The notes below the pieces were generated by a model. It saw only the letters and a program-made list of their open reading frames with translations. It was not told the origin of the DNA and did no database searches. The translations under genes were made by a program, and so were the position numbers. DNA of 64,000 nucleotides, from assembly GCA_000091205.1 (NCBI GenBank), contig AP006488.2, one strand, 5' to 3'. The stretch's first letter is position 1. Each line of letters begins with the position of its first letter. Source of the stretch: Cyanidioschyzon merolae. Taxonomy: Eukaryota. This document shows, in pieces, positions 33,568-35,061 of this stretch.

Positions 33568-35061
33568 CTATTGCTCGAGGATAAATTCCTGAACAGGGCG
33601 TCCAAGGTGGCGCGCTATGGTACCGTTACTGTCTCGCGCCGGTCGATGCACCAAAACCTGATGCTGTCCTCTATTCAGACTTGTCACCGCAACATTCCCG
33701 TGCTGACTAGAGGACGTACCTGAGGTCGTGGGCATCGCGAAGCGCACAGTCTCCGCGTTCTGGACGATGACGTTCCCGGCGATGTCGCCGCTCCACGATT
33801 CCGTCTTGTTGCCGGCAGCGGCACCCGTACCGTCCGCATGGAGACTTAGCTGCACGAGTAGCAACGGACGACGCTCGATTTTCGCTCGTCCAAGCGTTAC
33901 AGAGCGACTTCGACCCGAGCGGGCGTCCACCGCAAGGAGTTCATCGCCAGCTCGCAGCTCGCAGAGATACTTGGTCGAGCCATCGGGGACAAGGATGTAC
34001 GAATGGACGGCACCGGCATTCACGCGAAAAGGCCTACTAGCAACGTATGGGTTCTGAGCAGCTTCGCTGAGCACCAGGGCCAGAGTGGAGGCGCTGGAGC
34101 CCACCAGAAACCCTTCGTGAAACGCCAGCAGCGAACAGGTGTCAAGACAAACACGCTCGCCAACACCAGCTTCGCGCACGTCCACAACCACAGCTGGATC
34201 CAATACGAGACTGTTTTCGAGCCGTTGATAACGATTGCGTAGACTAGCGAAGGATTCAACGGCGCTGGCGCTCCCTGTGGCCAGAATAACGCCATGGACA
34301 CCGCGCTCTAAGCTTGCAAGCTGTGCCTCAGCCATGCCCGTCGTCGACACGACAACGAGTATACTCGTTTGTCTCTGATACGCTACGCTGACCAGATTTT
34401 CAACGGGTATGAGTTCCCAGTCTTTCGTTTCAACCATGACAATAGAGCGGCAAGGCAGGTTTTCTTCCAGAGCGTGCACATCTTCCGCGGACTGCAGTTC
34501 GTAAAATACTGCGTATGTAGCACCGGTGCGCTGCTCCCGCACCAATCGTGGACAGGTTCCGTGTGCTACAATATATCGTGCATCAGTGGTTGGCTCTTTC
34601 CACTCTCCCCAGGTTGTCGCATGCTCGTGTACCAGAACGGGAAAAGCGAGGTCCACTGCACGCGCGTATGCCTCTTGAGTGGCAGGCATAACCCAGAATG
34701 AACGCGAACTTGACGATAGTGCGTGATCCGCGCGACGCAAAGCGGCTCCGTCTGCGTAGGTCTCTGCAACCTCCTGGATGAACTGAAGGGAACAGGCACC
34801 CAGAGAGTGCCTCTGTGAGCGTTCGACAGTCCGTCGACAGCGCCCGACGTGCCGGTGTCGCGGGCCCAGCAGCCTTGATCCAGTGTCTGGGTTCCTTGTG
34901 AACTTCCGTGGATGCGATTCTACATAAAATCCTGTTCGAGTCGGAGCGTGTGCTCTCAGAGAGCGAGCTGTCGACCAAAGAGCGGTTGCAGCGGCGCCAC
35001 CGCTCCACGAACACCTTGAGAAGCTCGGCGGACACAACCAGGAAACTGCTTGCGACGACAT
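33568..35061 (-). CDS. Archaeal-type 3-dehydroquinate synthase II homolog (DHQS-II, PF01959-like) with an N-terminal extension of about 120 aa.
   Basis: '[78 protein letters not shown]...[14 protein letters not shown]' matches the conserved core of archaeal AroB' (DRVCIDTCSLM..GEGMLIGS...[22 protein letters not shown]...KIERRPLVL). '[13 protein letters not shown]' matches 'RDWTIIPLENLIA'. True ATG. Confidence 0.75.
   Translation of the reverse strand: [497 protein letters not shown]

Follow-up and report, generated by a model that had tools for sequence, protein, structure and literature searches.

A 64-kb stretch of DNA from the red alga Cyanidioschyzon merolae (contig AP006488.2, hereafter the window) was analysed around an intron-less gene that encodes a 497-residue protein of the archaeal-type 3-dehydroquinate synthase II family (DHQS-II, PF01959). 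The window sequence was found to match chromosome 6 of C. merolae 10D exactly. By exact-sequence look-up, the DHQS-II product is identical to BAM79531.1 / XP_005535817.1, deposited as 'hypothetical protein, conserved', and to UniProt M1UPX7, named '3-dehydroquinate synthase'. The open reading frame (ORF) singled out in a preliminary description of this DNA is a gene model that had already been deposited and automatically annotated as 3-dehydroquinate synthase. The same look-up showed that the products of the neighbouring APC4 (CMF180C) and Rab1 genes are also identical to C. merolae 10D proteins. Other genes in the window encode Sec23, MCM5, symplekin, an RRP6-like exonuclease, GatB, an M1 aminopeptidase and an acyltransferase. 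The GC content of the DHQS-II gene (0.576) and that of its third codon positions (GC3 = 0.562) are both like those of its neighbours.

An orthologue with 55% identity was found on a 72-kb hot-spring metagenome contig from a second cyanidiophyte (L001), and the gene order M1 peptidase-Rab-APC4-DHQS-GatB-exonuclease-hydrolase is common to both species. The window is ordinary eukaryotic nuclear DNA. Contamination was considered and ruled out by the exact chromosome match, the eukaryotic neighbours, the synteny with L001 and the host-like GC content. The preliminary description had used the flanking Rab1 and APC4 genes as an argument against contamination; both genes are present, and the synteny and base composition agree with that argument. 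The positions of the features are collected in Table 1.

Table 1. Positions of the DHQS-II gene, its parts and other features in the 64-kb window
Feature	Position	Strand	Remarks
DHQS-II coding sequence, complete, intron-less	33568..35061	minus	497 codons; stop codon 33568-33570; from ORF listing and PF01959
Catalytic core, residues 121-497	33571..34701	minus	DHQS-II fold; PF01959, with PF26558 second domain recorded for homologues
Internal Met125 codon	34687..34689	minus	start used by prokaryote-style gene callers in metagenome models
N-terminal extension, residues 1-120	34702..35061	minus	no prokaryotic counterpart; probable plastid transit peptide and linker
Acid-free leader segment, residues 1-47	34921-35061	minus	Ser/Thr/Ala-rich, Trp at position 8
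In-frame stop	35071..35073	minus	three codons upstream of M1; translation VT-stop-FLG directly before M1
APC4	35915-37756	plus	flanks the DHQS-II gene
Rab1	about 37998-38627	minus	flanking gene near DHQS-II
GatB	28618-30555	minus	Glu-tRNA-Gln amidotransferase B, organellar
50-bp tandem repeat	30635-30984		7 copies, 99% matches; upstream of GatB, about 80 bp from its start codon
14-bp tandem repeat ACGTATACACGGAT	38852-39188		24 copies, 95% matches; intergenic, just upstream of Rab1
Acidic-repeat paralogue near 10 kb	9581-10339 with 10336-11202	plus	repeats at 9793-10054 (TRF)
Acidic-repeat paralogue near 52 kb	51304-52566	minus	repeats at 52283-52483 (TRF)

The Pfam search returned PF01959 (DHQS) over residues 174-497, with E = 6.5e-81 and 272.3 bits against a gathering cutoff of 22.2. 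This is far past chance, and the profile match assigns the protein to the DHQS-II family, as the preliminary description had proposed; every motif quoted there is present in the ORF. The six best NCBIfam matches were all DHQS-II models, with NF002627 (238.7 bits) as the best. The model for 3-amino-4-hydroxybenzoate (3,4-AHBA) synthases, NF041224 (BagC/FevH), reached 136.7 bits with a cutoff of 750, about 100 bits under the DHQS-II models.

The conservation of the core was evaluated in an alignment of 60 archaeal, bacterial and red-algal sequences, and the C. merolae protein was found to keep all invariant columns (40/40). Of the 88 columns with at least 90% conservation among 164 prokaryotic homologues it kept 72, and the 16 differing positions are mostly conservative (L/V, E/D, A/S, I/V, G/A). 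I439V and G483A are the only substitutions that mark the whole eukaryote clade. In the AlphaFold2 model, based on a 60-sequence alignment, most of the range 121-497 had predicted local distance difference test (pLDDT) values above 90. A sequence search of the PDB matched no chain to the protein. The PF01959 family has no solved structure, and Foldseek yielded no more than weak resemblances to TIM barrels (HpaI aldolase, pyruvate kinase and ketopantoate hydroxymethyltransferase, KPHMT). The biochemistry of the family has been described for MJ1249 of M. jannaschii and OE1475F of H. salinarum, for which an NAD+-dependent deamination and cyclisation of 2-amino-3,7-dideoxy-D-threo-hept-6-ulosonate (ADH) to 3-dehydroquinate is reported (PMC4162585). 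The substrate of the first step in haloarchaea is debated, as OE1472F gave no detectable transaldolase reaction with aspartate semialdehyde and DKFP (6-deoxy-5-ketofructose-1-phosphate) (PMC4162585).

The core is preceded by an N-terminal extension. Since an in-frame stop lies just before it, M1 is the most upstream start possible. It is also the sole in-frame ATG before the conserved strand beta-1, the next Met being residue 125. When 120 homologues were aligned, this strand, '(F)WV', was found at residues 122-124, upstream of Met125, and AlphaFold2 gave a strand at E121-126 with a pLDDT of about 95. A metagenome model of 373 residues (P0001) begins with MPATQEAY, that is, at Met125. A translation start at this position was rejected because it would cut off strand beta-1. 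Given that the (F)WV strand precedes Met125 in all homologues, models of 373 residues such as P0001 are truncated, and Met125 is probably not the true start. In the same alignment the prokaryotic homologues begin 0-11 residues before the FWV strand, and those with red-algal names or red-algal-type neighbours carry 26-122 extra N-terminal residues where the gene model is complete. The N-terminal extension of about 120 residues is real.

Asp and Glu do not occur in the first 47 residues of the leader, which are 28% Ser+Thr and 17% Ala and include four basic residues. The full leader is net positive, with 18 Arg+Lys versus 7 Asp+Glu. Residues 1-87 are predicted to be disordered, with pLDDT values below 50 in the AlphaFold2 model. 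The L001 orthologue displays an open extension of 122 codons, and no similarity could be detected between the two leaders: the BLASTP alignment begins about 6 residues before the FWV strand, and the cores are 55-57% identical. Many red-algal homologues start with M..AF[VSI], as in Pyropia (MAAFASP), Rhodochaete (MISAAFVL), Rhodosorus (MAFGFVG) and Chondrus (LAFSAP), and a Phe ('AF') motif is reportedly a signature of rhodophyte plastid transit peptides. Composition and divergence suggest that the leader serves for targeting, most probably to the plastid, and evolves rapidly. The preliminary description had spoken of a mitochondrial or plastid presequence; the presequence-like character was confirmed, and of the two destinations the leader looks plastid rather than mitochondrial.

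The distribution of the family in eukaryotes was assessed by two database searches, the queries being the single sequence and a profile of 15 eukaryotic sequences. All the named eukaryotic matches belong to Rhodophyta, namely Chondrus crispus, Gracilaria domingensis, Eucheuma denticulatum, Pyropia yezoensis, P. vietnamensis, Rhodochaete pulchella and Rhodosorus marinus. At least five classes of red algae have DHQS-II homologues, all of them extended at the N-terminus. The gene is no oddity of one genome; it is conserved across Rhodophyta and already named by automatic annotation. In the profile search the eukaryote clade scored at least 417 bits, and the first archaeal matches 388 bits or less. 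The florideophyte gene order EAP30-DUF3007-DHQS of the Chondrus contig (L006) recurs on two contigs (L004 and L008), and a further contig of the same clade (L009) has DM13/DOMON and DUF1995 genes as neighbours. On L004, L006 and L008, DHQS-II always divergently adjoins DUF3007 (PF11460), near the ESCRT-II gene EAP30; the cyanidiophyte loci do not show this arrangement.

In a neighbour-joining tree the eukaryote-clade sequences formed one group (bootstrap 64/100), in which C. merolae and L001 were paired in all replicates (100/100). The commonest sister of the clade, in about 37 replicates, was a small group with P0022 (labelled Thermoplasmatota) and P0159 (labelled Methanobacteriota). On the contig of P0022 and on a Methanomassiliicoccales contig (L005, L007), DHQS-II lies directly downstream of a DeoC-family gene. 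This neighbour of P0022 passes the ADH-synthase equivalog TIGR01949 (320 versus 299 bits), and the operon order in the archaeal relatives is ADH synthase, DHQS-II, aroD/E, aroK, aroA, aroC. These data would best be read as a single ancient transfer from a prokaryote to the red-algal stem, and they point weakly to an archaeal (Thermoplasmatota-like) donor. Of the horizontal acquisition claimed in the preliminary description, the prokaryotic ancestry is supported by the homologues and the tree, and the archaeal donor weakly so. Full-text literature searches retrieved no paper on PF01959/DHQS-II in any eukaryote, red algae included, and likewise none for CMF179C and M1UPX7.

The presence of a canonical dehydroquinate synthase is relevant for the role of this enzyme. 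Archaeplastida use stand-alone plastid AroB enzymes, not AROM. The AROM protein, to which the gene had been compared, is for this reason the wrong reference for red algae. The preliminary description also implied that AroB had been replaced, which is contradicted by two sets of data. In a screen of the C. merolae genome a plastid 3-dehydroquinate synthase was found (Huang and Gogarten 2008, Genome Biol, PMC2530860), and the supplement of that study contains a Cyanidioschyzon row with the AroB motifs GGGVIGD, VDSAVGGKTG, LNFGHTFGHAIE and WLHGEAVAAGMV, beside E. coli AroB and AT5G66120. Chondrus crispus has both enzymes: the DHQS-II protein P0043 and XP_005717626.1 (P0363, '3-dehydroquinate synthase, chloroplastic'), an aroB equivalog with 383 bits in TIGR01357 (cutoff 305) and the leader MSAAFTSAP, a transit-peptide motif. 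Red algae carry both enzyme types, and DHQS-II does not replace AroB.

An approximate C. merolae AroB query, joined from alignment rows obtained by optical character recognition (OCR), gave a best protein of 67% identity and, among the matches listed, a best metagenome locus of 64%. The best-match cluster of this query contains Chondrus XP_005717626.1. Other C. merolae proteins are present in the searched collection of 5.8 billion proteins, though the AroB row was not recovered above 67%. The query may have been damaged by OCR or trimming, or the deposited proteome may lack the gene model; either could account for the non-recovery.

The chances are judged to be about even that the locus holds a functional nuclear red-algal gene for a plastid NAD-dependent ADH-to-dehydroquinate cyclase, obtained by ancient gene transfer. 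In this scheme the stem lineage of red algae would have received the gene horizontally from a prokaryote, which may have been a Thermoplasmatota-like archaeon, and the leader of about 120 residues would act as a plastid transit peptide that is cleaved upon import. The mature stromal enzyme would catalyse the NAD+-dependent oxidative deamination of ADH, followed by cyclisation of the deaminated product to 3-dehydroquinate. This compound would then be taken over by the plastid plant-type dehydroquinase/shikimate dehydrogenase, an enzyme that red algae possess (PMC9052079). The result would be a second shikimate entry, independent of erythrose-4-phosphate (E4P) and phosphoenolpyruvate and parallel to the canonical route of DAHP (3-deoxy-D-arabinoheptulosonate 7-phosphate) synthase and AroB. 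The weak link of the mechanism is where ADH comes from, and the substrate itself is inferred. It is possible, though doubtful, that red-algal plastids contain the complete archaeal-type entry parallel to DAHP/AroB, in which aspartate semialdehyde and a 6-deoxy-5-keto-hexose phosphate are converted to ADH and then to dehydroquinate.

Several observations weigh against a plastid ADH cyclase of this kind. The NF002627 score of 238.7 bits compares with a cutoff of 392, and all six NCBIfam DHQS-II models gave scores below their equivalog or subfamily cutoffs, so the function cannot be carried over automatically. These models were trained on prokaryotes, and the Chondrus protein P0043 is likewise under the NF002627 cutoff (296.6 versus 392). 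The canonical plastid AroB is also present in red algae; the DHQS-II route is therefore not needed for dehydroquinate, and a different function is plausible. No ADH synthase was seen within 10 kb of DHQS-II in the red-algal and red-algal-type loci inspected for gene context, a result of the neighbourhoods and not of a proteome search. Unless an ADH synthase of the TIGR01949 / PF01791 type is present, the enzyme would lack a known substrate. The intact active site is deduced from conservation, in a family with no solved structure. With regard to targeting, the preference for plastid over mitochondrion derives from the composition of the leader and the motifs of the homologues. The cyanidiophyte leaders are devoid of the early Phe motif: C. 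merolae has Trp8, with F14 as its first Phe, and the L001 leader has W8 and W10 in its place. The tree was built by neighbour joining on the top matches only, and both the monophyly (64%) and the donor are weakly supported.

Among other explanations, a neofunctionalised cyclase was considered, in which the DHQS-II fold and catalytic residues are kept but another amino- or keto-sugar acid is used in a red-alga-specific plastid pathway, for example a GriH-like aromatising cyclisation or a salvage reaction. GriH is a 3,4-AHBA synthase whose chemistry is such an aromatising cyclisation. The coexisting canonical AroB removes the need for a second dehydroquinate synthase, the scores lie below all DHQS-II equivalog cutoffs, and the family includes enzymes that do not produce dehydroquinate (the 3,4-AHBA synthases BagC/FevH and GriH). 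Moreover, I439V and G483A set the eukaryotes apart from the prokaryotes across the whole clade, and an ADH synthase partner is not demonstrated. However, the DHQS-II models score about 100 bits above the AHBA-synthase model, the 40 family-invariant residues are all kept, the clade signatures are conservative and the nearest relatives are bona fide DHQS-II genes embedded in operons. A change of substrate is accordingly regarded as a serious but rather unlikely alternative. The proposal that AroB disappeared from red algae and left the archaeal enzyme as their sole dehydroquinate synthase is far weaker and seems very improbable. Its basis is the approximate AroB query, for which neither the protein database nor, among the matches listed, the metagenome contigs gave more than 67% identity. 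The metagenome negative is weak, resting as it does on the matches listed. Against this proposal also stand the C. merolae AroB row printed in PMC2530860 and the occurrence in Chondrus of P0363, an aroB equivalog with a transit-peptide motif, together with DHQS-II P0043.

The leader might also direct the protein to mitochondria, or to both organelles, and not to the plastid alone. Its length of 120 residues and net positive charge (18 Arg+Lys versus 7 Asp+Glu) would suit such a destination, as would the missing Phe motif in C. merolae and the long leader of the neighbouring organellar GatB. On the other hand, the first 47 residues are Ser/Thr/Ala-rich with four basic residues only and no predicted helix, other red-algal homologues have the plastid-type M..AF motif, and aspartate semialdehyde and the enzymes of the shikimate pathway are plastidial in Archaeplastida (PMC3518814). 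Mitochondrial or dual targeting is thus considered quite unlikely. It is hardly credible that the case is an artefact, either a prokaryotic contaminant or a gene that starts at Met125 and has no presequence. Metagenome gene callers do give a 373-residue product from Met125, but this codon falls within conserved strand beta-1, and the locus lies among eukaryotic genes on a completed chromosome, with its gene order repeated in a second species. In addition, the upstream frame of 120-122 codons is open in both cyanidiophytes despite the lack of sequence similarity, and the chance of such an open frame was estimated by hand, for this base composition, as roughly 0.01 per lineage.

The product of the gene can be compared with known systems. 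With the archaeal DHQS-II enzymes (AroB'; MJ1249, OE1475F; EC 1.4.1.24) the C. merolae protein shares the PF01959 family, the invariant residues and the predicted two-domain architecture, and its core is about 39-43% identical to the Thermoplasmatota and Methanomassiliicoccales enzymes. In contrast to these, the C. merolae gene is nuclear, encodes a 120-residue leader with a putative targeting role and has neither an operon nor an adjacent ADH synthase. The enzyme coexists with AroB, scores below the NCBIfam equivalog cutoffs and carries lineage-specific insertions, for example the low-confidence residues around 405-428. The lack of AroB that is usual in archaea using the ADH route was not observed in red algae. 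The 3-amino-4-hydroxybenzoate synthases GriH/BagC/FevH, of the PF01959 superfamily, have a homologous fold (NF041224 match of 136.7 bits), but the C. merolae locus has no secondary-metabolite cluster context and its score is far from the NF041224 cutoff of 750.

The AroB-type enzymes (PF01761; AT5G66120, XP_005717626.1) have the same nominal product, 3-dehydroquinate, and the same presumed plastid location. They differ in a fold unrelated to that of DHQS-II, in the use of DAHP and not ADH as substrate, and in being encoded by a separate gene in red algae. The AroB-type plastid enzyme was also acquired by ancient gene transfer (PMC2530860). As for the targeting signal, the C. merolae leader resembles the rhodophyte Phe-motif transit peptides in being N-terminal, acid-poor, hydroxylated, disordered and fast-evolving, whereas the leaders of C. 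merolae and L001 are of unusual length (120-122 residues) and carry Trp8 in place of the Phe motif.

Some further features of the gene and the window were recorded. Two environmental C. merolae-like contigs (L002 and L003; JGI 3300057245 and Logan SRR29605859) differ from the DHQS-II gene of the window at 6 codons, 2 synonymous and 4 non-synonymous, which are too few for reading selection. One of the changes, S310L (codon 310, about 34132-34134), falls in the 'DTCSLL' motif at a position that is at least 90% conserved family-wide. The neighbouring GatB also has an extension of about 130 residues before its Pfam domain; the L001 GatB gene model is shorter, with 463 residues. A 50-bp tandem repeat lies before GatB, and in three frames the 14-bp repeat upstream of Rab1 creates ORFs that are repetitive and spurious. 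Two paralogous ORFs, oppositely oriented and separated by about 41 kb, show 57% identity over 195 residues, and each has acidic tandem repeats of 75 bp (25 residues). The longer copy ends with '...FVNRDFNAAINIRRC...', which we take to resemble the last RuvC motif of TnpB/Fanzor-type proteins. Neither of the two acidic-repeat paralogues gave a Pfam match at E <= 1. No tRNA genes were found in the 64-kb window.

The finding is a modest one and not field-changing, since AroB is kept in red algae and the gene was already automatically annotated; the role of the red-algal DHQS-II poses a minor open question and is no anomaly. In the literature the ADH/DKFP route to dehydroquinate counts as a speciality of archaea and some bacteria (PMC4162585). 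If a complete ADH pathway of the archaeal type were present in red algae, they would be the only known eukaryotes with it, and it could serve as a bypass when erythrose-4-phosphate is limiting or AroB is inhibited. Cyanobacterial 7-deoxysedoheptulose is an inhibitor of AroB, although its link to a red-algal bypass is speculation. An apparently archaeal donor would be added to the mosaic of horizontally acquired plastid enzymes of Archaeplastida. C. merolae is genetically tractable, so that the question is directly testable. A DHQS-II with putative plastid targeting, kept across Rhodophyta for more than 1 billion years, may represent either a second, E4P-independent entry to the synthesis of aromatic amino acids or an unrecognised activity of the family.

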